Shown piece after piece: positions 9,001 to 21,000 of a stretch of DNA of 44,471 nt. Position numbers: made by a program. Every line of letters begins with the position of its first letter. Within the stretch, counting starts at the first letter, position 1. Origin of the DNA: Methanobacteriaceae archaeon (GTDB taxonomy: Archaea > Methanobacteriota > Methanobacteria > Methanobacteriales > Methanobacteriaceae); the NCBI GenBank assembly GCA_003558085.1, contig PWMT01000027.1:1-44471 (forward strand). Direction: 5' to 3'.

Positions 9001-12000
9001 TATCAAAGGCAGCTACTACTTCTATGTCACTGGGTAGATATCCGCCTATTTCCCAGTGCATTAATCCAATAGCATCCTCTGATCCTTTATTCTGATAGTA
9101 ATGTATTCCTTGGATGAGGGAACTGGCACAATTACCCACACCGATTATTGCAATTTTTATTTTATCCAATTGAAACACCCAAATTTCTTTAAAAAAATAT
9201 GATGTTATCTAAAAAATTAATGTCATGATCATAATCTTTTACTAGATAATCCAAATTTAAGTAAACTTATATTCTTTTTGATGGAGAGTACAAATAAATG
9301 CTTTTTCATATATTTAGATGATGAGATAAGATAAAATTTACTCCCTAAATCAATATTTCAAACCCCATAATTAATTAACAAAGTTAATTCGTTAATAAAA
9401 CATTATAAGCATTATGGTCTAACTATGCATTATTTAGTTTTTTAATTGGCTTTATATAATATTAAATGTTTCGTTTATACTTATTTTTTTGCTTAATTGA
9501 TTTTTAAACCATTAAATAAGATTAAAATTAATTTATTTTAAATAAAATAGGAATATAGATTGCATAAAATAGATGGATAAATGTTTTTAATGAATTTAAG
9601 ATAAATATTTTAGGTGGTAGCTAATGTGTTTACTTTCTTTTTTTAGAATTTATTTTCTCTAAATTAAAACCACCCTTAAAAATACGAATAACCACCATAA
9701 CAACATAAGTATGGTACTTTTTAAATGGGGCAACGATTTTTTAAAACCATCTTTTAAATCAGAATTCAGACTCCAGTGAATAATAATTATTAAAAGCAGT
9801 AAAAGAGTTGCAATACCTCCTAAAATATTTAATGGATTATTTAAATAACTAAATATCCAAAAAAAAGTAGTAATAAGAATTCCAAGCCACATTACCGGAT
9901 TTAAACTTTCAAATACTTTAATAGCAAGTTTCAAGTTTTCTTCAAATTTACGGGCCTTTAAGAGTAGACCATAGATAGCTAGATACACTCCCAGGGCTAG
10001 AATAATACCTACAAACTGGGGAAAGACTTCTACTACAGGCACCTGGAAGAAGCCAGCTTTCAGTATAGGTAACAATATCAAGGCATTTAATGCTTCATCC
10101 AAGGGAAAGGTTTCTATATCTCCCACTGCCAGTGAATAAAAACCCTGATTTTCATTATTGAATACCCGAATATAATAGGTACCTGGCTCTACAGTCTGAT
10201 TATATTCAGGGCCTTGCAAGTAATTATCTCCTCCAAAAGGTTCAAAAAATGGTTTCCAATCATAATTTATCCCATCCAAGAGGACTATGACATTTAAATT
10301 TTCATCTAATATCTCAGCCGATACCAGTTTCTCTCCTGATCCGGGAGTATCGGGCACCAGTAAATTCACATATAATCGAAATTCTTCATTACTAGTTATT
10401 TTATAATAAGCCGGGCTTCCCTTAAGTTCACCATAAAAAGCCTGGGAAATTTCAGGATTATCCACTAGTATGGGATTTTCCAGGGAACTGTCCTCACGGG
10501 CTAAACGAGGCTGATGGGCATTACTCCAGGATAGAGATATTAAAAGAATTAATAAAATAATTACTAAACTTGTCCGTTGATAGAAAGTTCCGGCTTTCAT
10601 TAGTCAATTCTTTAATTTTAAAATGAATAAATTTTTTCACCAGGCAATTTAAAAAAATTAATTAGATACCTTTTAATTGCTTAACAATCTGCAATTTTTA
10701 ATGCTTTGAATTCCCCCTAAAAAATATTTTTTATAATTTAATAACCATTCCCGTAGAAAGATATTCAAGCTTACTACCCATCACTTCTTTTAAAAGCAGA
10801 TAAGGTTTTATTTCAGTACAATGTCCCGTGTAAACTTTCCCTAGAGGATATTTCAGTATTTTATCAGCAATTTCTTTTACTTCAAAGATGCACTCCTCCC
10901 TATTATTGAAGGCCGATTCTATAATATGAAAACCACCTAAAACTGCTTTTATAGGTTTTCCTCTAAATTTATTCCGGGCTGTTTCTATCATATTTAATAT
11001 GCCTTGATGGGAACATCCACTAAAAATAGTTATTCCGTCCTTTTCCTCGATGACCATCAAAAGCTCGTGGAGAAAATCATCCCTTATTAATTGCCTGTTT
11101 TTTTCCTGGTATAGAAATTTATTGTCTGGGGGTTGGGGATAGATTTTTTTAATGGAGCTTAGTAGATGCACATTCTCCAATATTTCCAGGTCCTGGGTCA
11201 GATATCTTATCTGCTGGGAGTTTTTTTCTAAAACCGTTTTATCCCAGGTAATATTCTTCTTGGTTCCATTATCATAAACACGGTAATAATTACCTATCTT
11301 TTTTGTATAGACTGGGGCATGTTTATTTTCCTTAAAAAAAGTTTCCAAGCCACCCCCATGGTCATAGTGTCCGTGGGATATTATTACTGTGTCAACTTCA
11401 TTGAGATCAATACCTAGTTCTTTGGCGTTTTCAGCGAAGTAACCACTTGCTCCGGTATCAAAAAGTATATTTTGTTTCTCTTTTTGGATGTGGAGAGAAA
11501 GACCATGCTCATTAATTAAATTAGAATTTTCCAATTTTTTATCATCAATTAAAGTGGTTATTATCAATATTTTACCCCAAATATCAATTTTGATTATTAA
11601 TATCTGTTTATCTTAATATAAATCTCTATTATAGAAAAAATAATCAATTCTTCACCATTAAAACTTTTTTTTTATAGTTTTATAAGGCTAATCTTTAATT
11701 AAAAACATCATATATTTTTTATTTAATAAACTAAATTCCATAAGGCCTTTATTATTTTGGCAAATTTTATATTATTGTAAAAGAGAAATAAATGGTTATG
11801 GTCATGCAGATTTCTACCGATGTTAGCGGAAGAAGTGGTATAGATTGTGGGGGTTTTTGCAAGTTCTGTTTTTATAAAAATGTTGATTTTAATAATTTAA
11901 AACCCATAGGTTGTGTAAATTGCCCTCCCCATACAAAAGGATGCTCTTATTGTCAAAGTATTATGGATAGAGTATCCAGTGATTATAAACCTCTTTATAA

Positions 12001-18000: not shown

Positions 18001-21000
18001 CTAATATGATATTTTTTGATATAGCAAACCATCAGTTATTTGACGTTAACTTGGGGTATACTCTTTTAATTACGGGAATTCCATTAATTTTCTTCTCCAG
18101 TTTAATTCTCTATAACATATACGCCCGTTTAAGAATTAAGGTTAATTTTAACTATTTTAGCATTTTTATACTTATTTTATTTACAGGTTTAACCGCATTT
18201 CTGGGAAATTTATTCTCTTTTCCTATAATGGGTATTTTTACCGGTTTAAGTTTATTTTTAATTTTACCTTTTGCTGTTAATCTCTGGATTAACCATAAAT
18301 ATGGTTCGGAGATTATCATTGAAGGTAAAGAATTCAACCGTCTAGAAAAACTTTCTCTTAAATCATTACCCTACGAGCTTCAATCCATTTATCAAGAATC
18401 TTCCTTTATTGGTGAAGGTGGTTTTGGTCGTGTATTTAAGGCTCAAAGAAATGATGGTCAGGATGTTGCCATAAAGATACCAAAAAGCTTTGATAAAAGG
18501 TCGGAGAAGATTTTTGTTAGTGAAGTGGCCAACTGGGAGAATTTAATCCATCCCCACATAGTTAGGTTATATGACTACAAGATCTTGCCTATACCCTACC
18601 TTGAAATGGAGTACTGCGAATCTTCATTAAGTTATGGACCAAAAACCGTGGAAGAATCAGTTTCCGTCATCTATGAAGTGGCACAGGGATTAAAATATGC
18701 TCATGGTAAAAATATTATCCATGGAGATATAAAAAACACCAATATCATGAGCTGTAATGGAATTTATAAAATTTCCGATTGGGGACTGAGCAAATTACAT
18801 CTTGATGAATCAGTTACTGTTTCCGGGGTTACTCCCCATTATGCTGCACCAGAACAAATATCTCGTGAATTTGGAAAAGCAGATAGAAGAACCGATATTT
18901 ATCAGCTGGGAATTATATTCTATGAACAATTAACTGGAAATTTACCCTTTAAAGGAGAAATTTCAAAAGTTTATGACTCTATATTAAATACCCAGCCAGT
19001 TTTTCCTTCGGTAATAAACCCAGATGCAGCTTTAGCTGATAAAATAGTAATGAAATGTTTAAGCAAAAACAAAAAAGAAAGATACAACTCAATGGATGAA
19101 TTACTCCAAGATCTGGAACCATTCTATAAACCAAGATCAACAAGCGATAAAACGGTTTTTTTAGATAAAGAAGTAGATTAAAAATTTATAGATTATTAAT
19201 TTAAACATCTAACTGATTTCATTATTTCTTGGGCATTAGTTATTTTTTTTTCTAAATCAAGTATTATATAGGCTTTATTACCTCTGCTTAAGCTGGAAGA
19301 TAGAATTAACTGTTTTTCTCCGATTAATTTAGCTCCATCTACCGGGGTATGTCCCACTATCATGGCCTGGCATCCAACATTTTTTAAAAATGAATCGATG
19401 TCATTATTATCATAATCCCCATAACGGTTCCATAAAAGTCCTAGCAGTTTCTGGTTATTCAAATAACTTACATCTGTTATATGGATAACATCTTCAATAC
19501 TGTTAACTTCTTTTGCAGGTCCCGCATGGCTAATGAATACTTTATTCCCGGTTTTAACAGCTATGGGAAGTTTTCTAAAGAAATCCTGATATTCTTTTAA
19601 TTTATCTAGCCATTTATCCTGAAATTTCTCTTTTAATAAAATTTCAAAGGTAGAGTTTAAATCTTCCATGTTCTTATAAATGGCAACTGAAGTGATAACT
19701 GACCACTCATGGTTTCCTAATAGGACATGAAAGTTGGTATCTTTTTCAAAATTAGATTTAACAGTCTCTAATAATTCAATTGATTCATCTTTATCATGGT
19801 CTATAGCATGTATAAAATCACCAATTAATACCAGATGATTATCTTCTTTTTTAAAATCCTTCCAAATATCCATTAATTTATTAAAATCAGTTAAATTACC
19901 ATGAATATCTGCAATTATCAAGGCCTTACCTTTTTTGGGCAATTCAACCAGACTACCCCTATAATTATGCATGTTATCATATTTATTATTAATTTTATTA
20001 TATTAATAGTTTATATCACTAAGATTTTATATTCTACTAGATACAAAAATGGGTTTAATTAAGAACAAGCTCAAAGATTTTTAAATTAGGGGAGGGTTTC
20101 CTCTTTGCATAAGGGAAAATTGATGGGTATACTGGCCGGAATTACTTTTTTTATTATTATTTTAGCGTTGCTTAGTTATCTACAAACAGATTTTGACCAG
20201 AAGTTAATTATTGCGGTAAATAATGAAGAACCTACCTCAATTTTGATTACTCAAATTGAAGATGAAGCTGCAAGAGAGAGATCTAAAGCAAAAAATAACT
20301 TATTATCCAACATGTTGGATAGAAAATTTTGGTTTCAAATTGATAGTTTTAATGAATCTGATATTCAATTTTCTAAAGGAGTGTATATTAGACATATGAA
20401 ATTTATTAATGAGCAGGAGGAGTTAAGAAAAGATTTGGTAACTAAAAAAATTAATGTAGAAGAATTTACATTAGAAAGCAAAAGATTGGAAGAACTTTAC
20501 TACGCTAAGTTCTTTTGAATAAAAATTTATTAATTACTATAATAAATATCAATCCATTTCCTCATTTAAAATAGAATCTATCTGCTGGTGCACCTCTTCA
20601 ATACTGGGAGAGGTATTGATTATATGCCATTTTTGGGCTAGTTCTAAAGCTTTTCTTCTAACCTTTATTAAATCCTCTTTATTTTCAAACATCTCCTCAA
20701 AATCTCTCTCTTTTAAGCGTTGAAGCGCGTCATCTTCTTCTAGATCTAAAAAAAACATATAAGGTGAGGTAGGTAGAAATAGGGTGAAAATTTTATAGAA
20801 GATTTTAGCCAGGGGCAGTGGGAGGTAGGCCACACCCATAAGATATCTTACAAATATAACCGTATCTGCTTTTCCATAATATAAACGAACAGATCTTATA
20901 ACGTCTAATGCGTAATAAAAGGATGCTTTTAATTTATTTATTTTTCCTCTACCTAAAAGGGCATGCTTAGCCTGGATACCATAATAGTTGTCATCAGAGG

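Follow-up and report, generated by a model that had tools for sequence, protein, structure and literature searches.

A second homologue of the MCR methylase Mmp10, encoded in a 44,471-nucleotide contig of a Methanobacteriaceae archaeon (PWMT01000027.1; this whole stretch is called the window here), lies in a locus that we read, with confidence a little short of even, as a RiPP-like peptide cluster linked to a receptor kinase, in which the paralog would C-methylate a small peptide, a protease would release it and the kinase would sense it. The paralog is proposed to be an optional tailoring enzyme of this cluster, and the sequence evidence points to a peptide with a Gly-X3-Gly (GX3) helix, not to the kinase, as its likely substrate. 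The conserved 56-aa gene of this peptide (16603–16773) and a pentapeptide-repeat/channel-like gene had been omitted from the gene list of the first-pass annotation; the identities given there for the kinase, the FHA protein, the phosphatase and the M6 protease were upheld by Pfam and NCBIfam. The locus comprises the following features:

11792–13057, plus strand: Mmp10 paralog, B12-dependent radical-SAM enzyme (421 aa, likely start at 11804; TIGR03278)
13213–13764, plus strand: membrane-anchored FHA protein, putative phosphothreonine reader (PF00498, E 6e-11)
13807–14892, plus strand: pentapeptide-repeat protein with a C-terminal two-helix channel-like domain, accessory (PF13576)
14902–14988, minus strand: in-frame continuation of the M6 gene, 28 codons behind a single TAA, encoding the GX3 tail found on the protease itself in relatives
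14989–16455, minus strand: zinc metalloprotease of the M6 family, lacking a signal peptide and proposed to act as leader peptidase (TIGR03296)
16603–16773, plus strand: precursor-like peptide, 56 aa, with a GX3 helix and a hypervariable Trp/Pro-rich C-terminus
16953–19181, plus strand: receptor-like Hanks Ser/Thr kinase (Pfam, hydropathy)
19196–19972, minus strand: calcineurin-like (PPP-type) metallophosphoesterase, putative phosphatase (PF00149, E 2.3e-17)
20105–20518, plus strand: 137-aa protein, one membrane helix and a helical bundle, core member (predicted all helical, pLDDT 87.7)

Family and active-site residues of the Mmp10 paralog

The paralog scored 439.7 bits against TIGR03278, above the curated cut-off of 350, so that it will be mis-annotated as an MCR methylase, and it aligned to the Mmp10 structure 7QBS with an E value of 3.8e-84. 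As stated in the first-pass annotation, it is 42% identical to the other copy in this genome (contig C110, 14176–15423), the canonical mmp10, which lies beside mcrB and divergent from the mcr operon. The predicted structure (pLDDT 91.1) reached TM values of 0.89–0.90 to 7QBS–7QBV. In a quick, midpoint-rooted tree, a single branch with an SH-aLRT of 100 parted 32 paralogs (25 genomes) from 33 canonical proteins, in line with the separate group proposed before; mean within-group identity was 53% for the paralogs and 71% for the canonical proteins. Judging by dN/dS values of 0.10–0.24 in all seven pairs compared (0.20 against genome G005), the paralog is under purifying selection, and its low dS relative to canonical mmp10 in four of these pairs suggests exchange between species.

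With Mmp10/MamA (TIGR03278; PDB 7QBS–7QBV; PMC8828468) the paralog shares the fold and, as had been claimed, the cofactor ligands: the radical-SAM cysteines (CX3CX2C), the iron-loop cysteines, Tyr115, Asp90, Asp156, Thr291 and Leu322 were each present in 32 of 32 paralogs, and Arg210 was retained in 31. In contrast, and again as claimed, the arginine-clamping loop is lost. The DGEM motif of the Glu378 loop occurred in none of the 32 paralogs, one of which ends before this loop, versus all 33 canonical proteins, and GGGD was distributed likewise (0/32 versus 33/33). The earlier view that every canonical protein carries DGEM held within this order; outside it, among full-length representatives, the motif varies in P0025 and P0028, and the loop of P0027 and P0030 contains no Glu. 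Further replacements set the paralogs apart from Mmp10/MamA: Glu54 was kept in 4/32 (33/33 in canonical proteins) and was Arg in 18, Gly89, invariant in the 33 canonical proteins, was Ala in 31, Asp376 was Pro in 24, and Cys321, beside the lower axial Leu, was Asp in all 32; Asp6 is mostly replaced, Arg345 is changed to Gly, and bulky residues occupy the Gly88 position in part of the group.

Canonical Mmp10 carries out one reaction on one MCR arginine with strict specificity, acts on a 13-residue peptide and requires Glu378 for the arginine; Glu378 also keeps Tyr115 aside for radical chemistry (PMC8828468), and its loss could therefore impair catalysis. This loss of part of the Tyr115 switch, together with the changes at Gly88, Gly89 and Cys321, would suit an improbable alternative, in which the paralog has given up radical methylation and informs the kinase circuit of the cofactor or redox state, either as a sensor that binds B12, SAM and iron or as a methylase of non-radical type. 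However, the metal ligands, Asp90, Asp156 and Leu322 are all kept, a lower axial Leu is taken to favour radical methylation in the relevant portion of one source (PMC11659888), the gene is under purifying selection, and divergent tandem copies are more easily understood as serving different target sites.

Very improbable, in our estimate, is a role as a backup or isoenzyme-specific methylase for the MCR arginine, or for an Arg elsewhere, with the gene position being incidental. It would agree with the score above the TIGR03278 cut-off, with a Glu that lies near the Glu378 position in some copies, one residue off in the window paralog, and could still bind Arg, and with an Arg near the end of the peptides, although only 20 of 35 have one among their last 10 residues. 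Against it, this genome has one mcrA by tblastn, matching the single MCR reported earlier, Glu54, Gly89 and the Glu378 loop are changed group-wide, and kinase sequence is present in 31 of the 33 loci with a paralog. The suggestion of the first-pass annotation that the enzyme methylates another target is compatible with the residue counts and the dN/dS range; that annotation had linked the enzyme with the kinase and had named no target.

The GX3 peptide and the M6 protease

The peptide gene is coding and under purifying selection, judging by a dN/dS of 0.197 over eight disjoint pairs. Across loci the peptides measure 44–120 aa, and their body, a conserved Gly-X3-Gly helix with two to five GX3 repeats by pattern count, is followed by a conserved small-residue step and then by the tail. 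All 35 peptides have Trp within the last 4 residues and Pro within the last 8, and there are 33 distinct last-8 strings among them; Trp makes up 33% of the last 8 residues and 0.2% of the remainder, and many tails have no basic residue. The strict GX3 pattern is absent in two loci (L051, L056), both lacking an M6 gene. One hallmark of RiPP clusters, a short precursor with a conserved leader and a variable core (the cleavage site being putative), is seen here; another, a modifying enzyme co-clustered with a peptidase, is likewise found: of 55 loci, 41 carry the M6 protease, 33 the paralog and 6 a class I methyltransferase.

Weak Pfam Yae1_N matches were obtained for 10 of 19 peptides (best E 0.0014). 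GX3 motifs mediate Yae1–Lto1 pairing (PMC4523923, in the portion considered), and with these deca-GX3 adaptors and FliH the peptide shares a GX3 helix, a terminal Trp as in Lto1 and a proposed helix–helix pairing; unlike them, it has two to five repeats and a hypervariable tail, and its partner copy is fused to a protease. An Lto1-like Fe–S adaptor for the paralog, or a cis-acting leader or ribosome-arrest peptide for the kinase gene, is hardly probable at all. The GX3 motif with terminal Trp would fit the former, and the latter the Trp/Pro-rich end and the constant position upstream of the kinase; yet in the window, where the gene has a G-rich stretch upstream and a T-run after its stop, about 180 bases including that T-run precede the kinase start, 15 loci that lack the Fe–S enzyme retain the gene, and the repeats are not ten. 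In locus L036, moreover, two paralog copies flank a second peptide gene, which runs on the opposite strand and is not upstream of a kinase; this favours action in trans.

The M6 gene, divergent from the peptide gene, encodes a protein that scored 178.5 bits against TIGR03296 (cut-off 110.8), and no N-terminal hydrophobic stretch was found in any of 21 M6 proteins picked by their zinc motif. These proteases usually end in a copy of the peptide's GX3 helix. In 18 of 20 loci, the tail scored 53–134 against the peptide body of its own locus, versus 20–33 for shuffled tails; the two misses were the window, where the tail lies behind the stop, and L150, where it is in a separate frame. The similarity within loci had a permutation p of 0.0004, a value confounded by kinship, and peptide and tail lengths were not correlated (rho 0.28, p 0.23). 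A docking site for the peptide is a plausible role of this tail.

Of 24 peptides encoded in paralog loci, 18 have a [PT]-P-[ED] step N-terminal to the tail, compared with none of the 15 from complete loci that lack the paralog; this correlation and that of the class I methyltransferase described below are counts over related genomes that ignore kinship. The window cluster is atypical: its peptide has no such step, its M6 tail is cut off by the stop, and the same-genus locus L032 has lost M6. The window peptide resembles those of paralog-less loci (59% to L136, 55% to L140), and enzyme and peptide may therefore be mismatched here.

The kinase and the make-up of the cluster

The kinase combines an N-terminal hydrophobic segment, a DUF4350/GIFT domain, about five to six membrane helices and a non-RD kinase domain, and its Gly-loop, Lys, catalytic-loop and DWG motifs were conserved in 32 of the 32 relatives listed. 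One DUF4350 family is GldG-like and, in the portion of the source considered, is placed in a predicted secretion or membrane-remodelling complex, not described as a peptide receptor (PMC5898192). The FHA protein has two N-terminal hydrophobic stretches, and a homologue of the pentapeptide protein in locus L173 gave a weak Ion_trans_2 match below the cut-off (E 0.0036). The 137-aa protein, which nearly always adjoins the kinase, had no Pfam or NCBIfam match; matches to it occurred in 61 of 329 genomes, weaker distant relatives included.

Among 55 loci, the kinase was present in 51, the 137-aa gene in 48, the phosphatase in 28, the FHA gene in 25 and the pentapeptide gene in 9. By gene content, the core of the cluster is the peptide, the M6 protease, the kinase and the 137-aa protein. 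The paralog is missing from 15 otherwise complete loci, all of which keep the peptide gene, and this identifies the enzyme as accessory; where present it is often tandem-duplicated, as noted before. RiPP clusters are laid out in this way, with a constant core and varying tailoring-type genes (here 0–3 paralogs, a methyltransferase, a protease). The class I methyltransferase loci span three chromosomal settings, all with the divergent paralog type, and a zinc-ribbon trypsin-like protease occurred in four loci.

The peptide gene was found in 25 of the 33 paralog loci (24 by script, plus L055); of the other eight, three have suffered deletions and five are cut short by the end of a contig; for three of these five, the genome has the gene elsewhere, on a different contig. 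The two paralog loci without kinase sequence comprise one deletion and one contig end. The first-pass placement of the paralog in a conserved kinase cluster stands, the paralog being optional and not core, and the occurrence of the module in at least five chromosomal settings makes the link stronger than had been feared. The window and loci L032–L056 have kinase-cluster neighbours and not mcr, whereas mmp10 adjoins the mcr operon in most orders according to the portion of a preprint considered (10.1101/211441).

Within the order, at least 28 of 261 genomes carry the paralog (25 in the tree, plus G136, G176 and G252 by locus; fragments in G100 and G207 left out), all in family f1 (genera g1, g3, g6, g9 and g10) among the matches listed. 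Two family f3 loci have the kinase (split), FHA, phosphatase and 137-aa genes and neither peptide nor M6 gene.

A peptide-signal reading and its alternatives

In the favoured reading, the precursor would dock on the M6 protease through helix–helix GX3 pairing, and the paralog, with SAM, [4Fe-4S] and methylcobalamin, would place a C-methyl group on it, with Arg a less likely target than Trp, Pro or a residue in the helix that directly precedes the tail; tandem copies would mark further sites. The protease would cut near the small-residue step before the tail to give a hydrophobic peptide of about 8–14 residues, which would reach the membrane or the outside, and the kinase would sense it, possibly together with the 137-aa protein. 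FHA proteins would read the signal, the phosphatase would reset it, and tail sequence and methyl pattern would create strain-specific signal types. Counting against this reading are the atypical window cluster, the two family f3 loci, the Glu close to the Glu378 position, the description of DUF4350 and the lack of a dedicated exporter among recurrent neighbours. In its full form, an archaeal peptide-pheromone system made of components that bacterial ones are not known to use, in which a copy of the MCR-modifying enzyme writes strain-specific C-methyl marks on a Trp/Pro peptide, with a GX3-docked protease and a Hanks kinase/FHA/phosphatase readout, the idea is possible but appreciably more doubtful.

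In Bacillota, ComQXPA and agrBDCA cluster a precursor with a variable C-terminal core, a modifying enzyme or protease and a membrane receptor kinase, with allelic variety. The present cluster resembles them in this layout and variety; however, no homologous parts were found, a Hanks Ser/Thr kinase, FHA protein and phosphatase stand in place of a His kinase and response regulator, and no transporter or DNA-binding regulator was seen here. RiPP clusters with B12 radical-SAM C-methyltransferases include those of bottromycin and polytheonamide (PoyB/PoyC), and TsrM is another such enzyme in the portion of the source considered (PMC11659888). Common to these and our locus are a leader–core precursor, a peptidase and several methylase paralogs, but the paralog has the Mmp10 C-terminal B12 domain instead of the N-terminal Rossmann type, and the locus is archaeal and linked to a receptor kinase.

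The main rival, an intracellular adaptor or conflict (defence) system that we judge rather unlikely, treats the GX3 helix as a domain for homotypic coupling, by which the protease is recruited, with the tail binding a partner or acting as bait; the kinase would sense envelope stress or attack, the channel-like protein or protease would be the effector, and the paralog would methylate the uncleaved adaptor or another cluster protein. Effector-associated domains of bacterial conflict systems, as far as the source was considered (PMC7159879), similarly place a small helical domain on adjacent genes with one copy fused to a peptidase, and here too the stand-alone and enzyme-borne copies are closer within a locus. 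The patchy spread with many deleted or frameshifted clusters, the low paralog dS and the lack of a dedicated exporter among recurrent neighbours also suit it. However, no NTPase or vWA core was seen among protein groups in at least 3 of 27 loci (by sequence reading, part Pfam-scanned), the stand-alone copy has a Trp/Pro tail, and the kinase has an outer domain. PADLOC 2.0 (library of 2023) returned nothing for six of eight proteins, and otherwise generic kinase matches (mad6, PD-T4-6, Stk2, MkoA) and one weak membrane-segment match (PycTM). By itself, this rival leaves the variable methyltransferases and the conserved small-residue step unexplained.

An antimicrobial cluster has a small probability: a freed, membrane-active tail stabilised by methylation, the 137-aa protein giving immunity and the kinase autoinducing. 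The Trp/Pro-rich tail composition, which we take to be indolicidin-like, and the small membrane protein beside the kinase favour it; the many tails without basic residues, the lack of an exporter among recurrent neighbours and the 137-aa gene retained in two loci without peptide gene (L199, L200) speak against it.

Returning to the peptide-cluster reading, the data suggest that a second Mmp10 copy has taken on the modification of a peptide signal. Since the sister group is diversified and comes with matching short, variable candidate substrates, new sp3 or indole C-methylation chemistry could be tested directly by means of the published peptide assay. Should the peptide be a signal, methanogens would have peptide-based communication or kin recognition; for these organisms a review, in the portion considered, names only acyl-homoserine lactones (PMC5007285). 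The whole set is present in a cultured strain, Methanobacterium oryzae DSM 11106 (locus L173).

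The second Mmp10 copy and its active site

By profile and fold, the gene at 11792–13057 (+) encodes a member of the Mmp10 family. Its full-length product scored 439.7 bits with TIGR03278 (cut-off of 350), had 7QBS as its sole sequence match in the PDB, and gave an AlphaFold2 model (pLDDT 91.1) with TM values of 0.89–0.90 to Mmp10 structures. This bore out the first-pass annotation, which had described a second Mmp10 with 42% identity to the copy lying divergent from mcrB on contig C110 of the same genome, and which had rightly counted a single MCR there (one mcrA gene). In a quick, midpoint-rooted tree of 65 proteins, a single branch with an SH-aLRT of 100 divided 32 paralogs (25 genomes) from 33 canonical copies, as that annotation had also proposed. 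A main type comprised 20 of the paralogs (support of 99), and the remaining 12 were more divergent and only weakly grouped. The paralog was found in at least 28 of the 261 genomes of the order, all within one family. Second matches in five further genomes (three of family f3, one each of f2 and f1) turned out to be weak, unrelated radical-SAM proteins, and a candidate from genome G120 (locus L057) was assigned to the canonical copies by motif and tree.

We then mapped the positions named in the available text of PMC8828468 onto both groups. The radical-SAM and iron-loop cysteines, Tyr115, Asp90, Asp156, Thr291 and Leu322 were kept in all 32 paralogs, and Arg210 in 31; a non-radical or sensing role for the paralog appears improbable to us. 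By contrast, the Glu378 motif and GGGD, both present in 33/33 canonical proteins, were found in none of the paralogs, and Glu54 and Asp6, likewise invariant in the canonical group, were retained in only 4/32 and 14/32, respectively. Replacements typical of the paralog group were Cys321 to Asp (32/32), Arg345 to Gly (31/32) and Asp376 to Pro (24/32). The cofactor ligands and the lost arginine-clamping loop were thus as previously annotated. Nevertheless, three observations count against a clean reading: the window paralog carries a Glu one residue away from the Glu378 position, the motif is variable outside this order, and Glu378 also has a part in the Tyr115 switch, according to the portion of PMC8828468 at hand. 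Two divergent Mmp10-like proteins outside the paralog group (P0027 and P0030) are similarly devoid of a Glu378 equivalent. A backup MCR methylase is a very remote reading. Although from the same protein family, the paralog departs from the MCR methylase Mmp10 in both substrate-contact and gene-position features.

In seven matched genome pairs, dN/dS was 0.10–0.24 for the paralog and 0.04–0.09 for canonical mmp10, and the paralog is therefore under selection, though freer. Its dS was well under the canonical value in four of these pairs, which, with one comparator gene, hints at exchange between species.

A 56-codon gene and the tail of the M6 protease

The genes listed for this locus by the first-pass annotation all stand; a short gene between the protease and the kinase had been left out. 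The features concerned are as follows.

11792–13057 (+), Mmp10 paralog
14902–14991 (-), TAA codon plus GX3 tail behind the M6 gene, the 28-codon tail in frame at 14902–14988 (-)
14989–16455 (-), M6 zinc metalloprotease
16603–16773 (+), peptide gene of 56 codons with a TTG start and a G-rich stretch upstream, in the M6–kinase gap
16953–19181 (+), receptor-like Hanks Ser/Thr kinase
20105–20518 (+), membrane protein of 137 aa

Relatives of the peptide, of 44–120 residues, occupy the same position in other loci. A strict three-fold G-[YF]-x-x pattern was present in 32 of 35 aligned peptides, and all 35 had a Trp among the last four residues and a Pro among the last eight, while the last-eight strings themselves were highly variable (33 distinct). 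Arg near the end was seen in only 20/35. Pooled dN/dS over eight disjoint pairs was 0.197. In the protein databases, relatives were named only hypothetical or 'FliH' (20 matches among 594 candidates), and an atlas search returned only unnamed clusters, all below 0.9. Pfam Yae1_N gave a weak signal in 10 of 19 peptides; a T-run 3' of the gene, seen in 16/35, was too infrequent to count as a conserved terminator, and a sigma-70-type promoter scan, with a consensus ill-suited to archaea, yielded 56 sites against 51.1 expected. That the gene is a cis-acting leader or encodes an Fe-S adaptor seems hardly credible.

The peptide profile also matched the C-terminus of the adjoining M6 protease. In 18 of the 20 loci with both genes, the peptide scored 53–134 against its own-locus M6 tail, compared with 20–33 for shuffled tails. 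In the window, this tail lies behind one TAA, which may reflect either a genuine nonsense mutation or a fault in the assembly. In the Yae1–Lto1 pair, GX3 motifs keep the two partners together (PMC4523923, in the part available), and by this analogy it is a reasonable inference that the precursor would pair with the M6 protease via GX3. No N-terminal hydrophobic stretch was detected in 21 M6 proteins, and peptide length did not track M6 length.

GX3 helices were also found in other settings. At locus L036, two paralog copies flank a second peptide gene on the opposite strand (9746–9973, +), which has a tail of its own and a degenerate GX3 helix. Stand-alone GX3 proteins of 61–67 aa without the Trp tail (L146:7589-7786, L147:7781-7984 and L148:7868-8053) lie in housekeeping surroundings, and their genomes encode a distant 164–168 aa relative of the 137-aa protein at other sites (L209, L210). 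The 135-aa record P0004, in which a PF04688-bearing N-terminus is joined to the peptide, is probably an assembly chimera.

Composition of the cluster

In the kinase, a hydrophobic segment at the N-terminus and a DUF4350/GIFT domain are combined with approximately 5–6 membrane helices and a non-RD Hanks domain that is intact. From sequence prediction, the FHA protein is membrane-anchored and the calcineurin-like phosphoesterase (phosphatase) soluble. The 137-aa protein was modeled as a helical bundle with a single membrane helix, for which Foldseek returned no match at an E of 0.001 and an atlas search only unnamed clusters, all below 0.9. A BAR-domain likeness was discarded, as the best VIA-align hit (Z 9.4, rmsd 2.8, 98 aligned) fell within the generic helical-bundle range. 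Of the phylum's 329 genomes, 61 had a match to the profile of the 137-aa protein, and none of these was among the 103 in genus g4.

We compared 55 hand-picked, non-redundant loci, anchored on the paralog (26), the peptide (17), the kinase (9) or the 137-aa gene (3). With every count depressed by contig ends, the kinase was present in 51, the 137-aa gene in 48, the peptide in 43 (not counting L055, which the script overlooked), M6 in 41, the paralog in 33, the phosphatase in 28, FHA in 25 and a pentapeptide-repeat protein in nine. The previously proposed placement of the paralog within a kinase cluster was confirmed; however, 15 loci with peptide, M6, kinase and 137-aa gene had no paralog, and in 11 of these no second Mmp10 was matched elsewhere in the genome. 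Locus L142 stops at a contig edge, so that its lack of a paralog is judged from the genome-wide Mmp10 search only. No fewer than five chromosomal contexts were seen for the module, and clusters with and without paralog were both seen at the acetyl-CoA synthetase/thermosome site.

Among relatives uncorrected for kinship, a [PT]-P-[ED] step preceding the tail occurred in 18/24 peptides from paralog loci but 0/15 from complete paralog-less loci, and a class I methyltransferase gene in six loci (three contexts) always accompanied the divergent paralog type; the peptides seen there were all Pro-terminal, as were two short ones from loci without it. A zinc-ribbon trypsin-like protease gene directly follows the paralog in four loci (L045:11191-12330; relatives in L036, L039 and L044). 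Internally deleted or frameshifted clusters were L046, in which M6 abuts the paralog, L157, in which the kinase abuts the last third of the paralog, L207, L208, L212 and L214. Genome G176 has two clusters (L149, L150) whose peptides differ; the paralog is present as two frameshifted copies in one and absent from the other.

A candidate peptide-signalling system

The available text of PMC10125368 describes the RiPP pattern as a leader–core precursor, a peptidase and variable modifying enzymes. The cluster matches this arrangement, and the paralog can therefore be read as an optional C-methylase that would act on the peptide; we consider it somewhat probable that the peptide is its substrate. 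Given the limited occurrence of Arg near the peptide end, Trp or Pro would be the likelier target. Prediction of a paralog–peptide complex (scores of 0.03 and 0.02, where the mark was 0.32, run without folded controls) carries no weight either way. The protease would then free the tail, and the kinase might sense it. This whole sequence of methylation, release and sensing is put forward tentatively, at slightly less than even chances.

Its main weaknesses are threefold. No exporter was visible among the recurrent neighbours; the window's own cluster is in an atypical state; and two f3 loci (L199, L200) have the kinase set, with split kinases, where neither peptide nor M6 genes were found. At these loci, a different, broken class I methyltransferase lies between the 137-aa gene and FHA (L199:8862-9497 and L200:8182-8980). 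An intracellular adaptor or conflict system, suggested by likeness to the effector-associated-domain systems in the accessible part of PMC7159879, is an unlikely but serious competitor. An antimicrobial peptide with an immunity protein we hold to be distinctly less likely still.

The paralog and its cluster are real and apparently undescribed so far. We found no description in the literature covered, including the available text of PMC11659888, PMC5943407, 10.1101/211441, PMC5898192, PMC5007285 and 10.64898/2026.07.27.741052; the word 'paralog' does not occur in the main text of PMC5943407, 10.1101/211441 and PMC11659888, whose supplements may list second copies. There is a fair chance that archaeal peptide signalling of a new type is encoded here, and the proposal is open to direct testing. 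The cluster would work like the ComQXPA and agr cassettes, yet has no part in common with them.

Elsewhere in the window, proteins of 518 aa (5933–7489, -) and 313 aa (9659–10600, -; 74% identical in same-genus loci) belong to no Pfam family. Furthermore, this methanogen genome encodes a TspO protein (27739–28221, -) and a large-subunit catalase with a DJ-1 domain (38719–40854, +).
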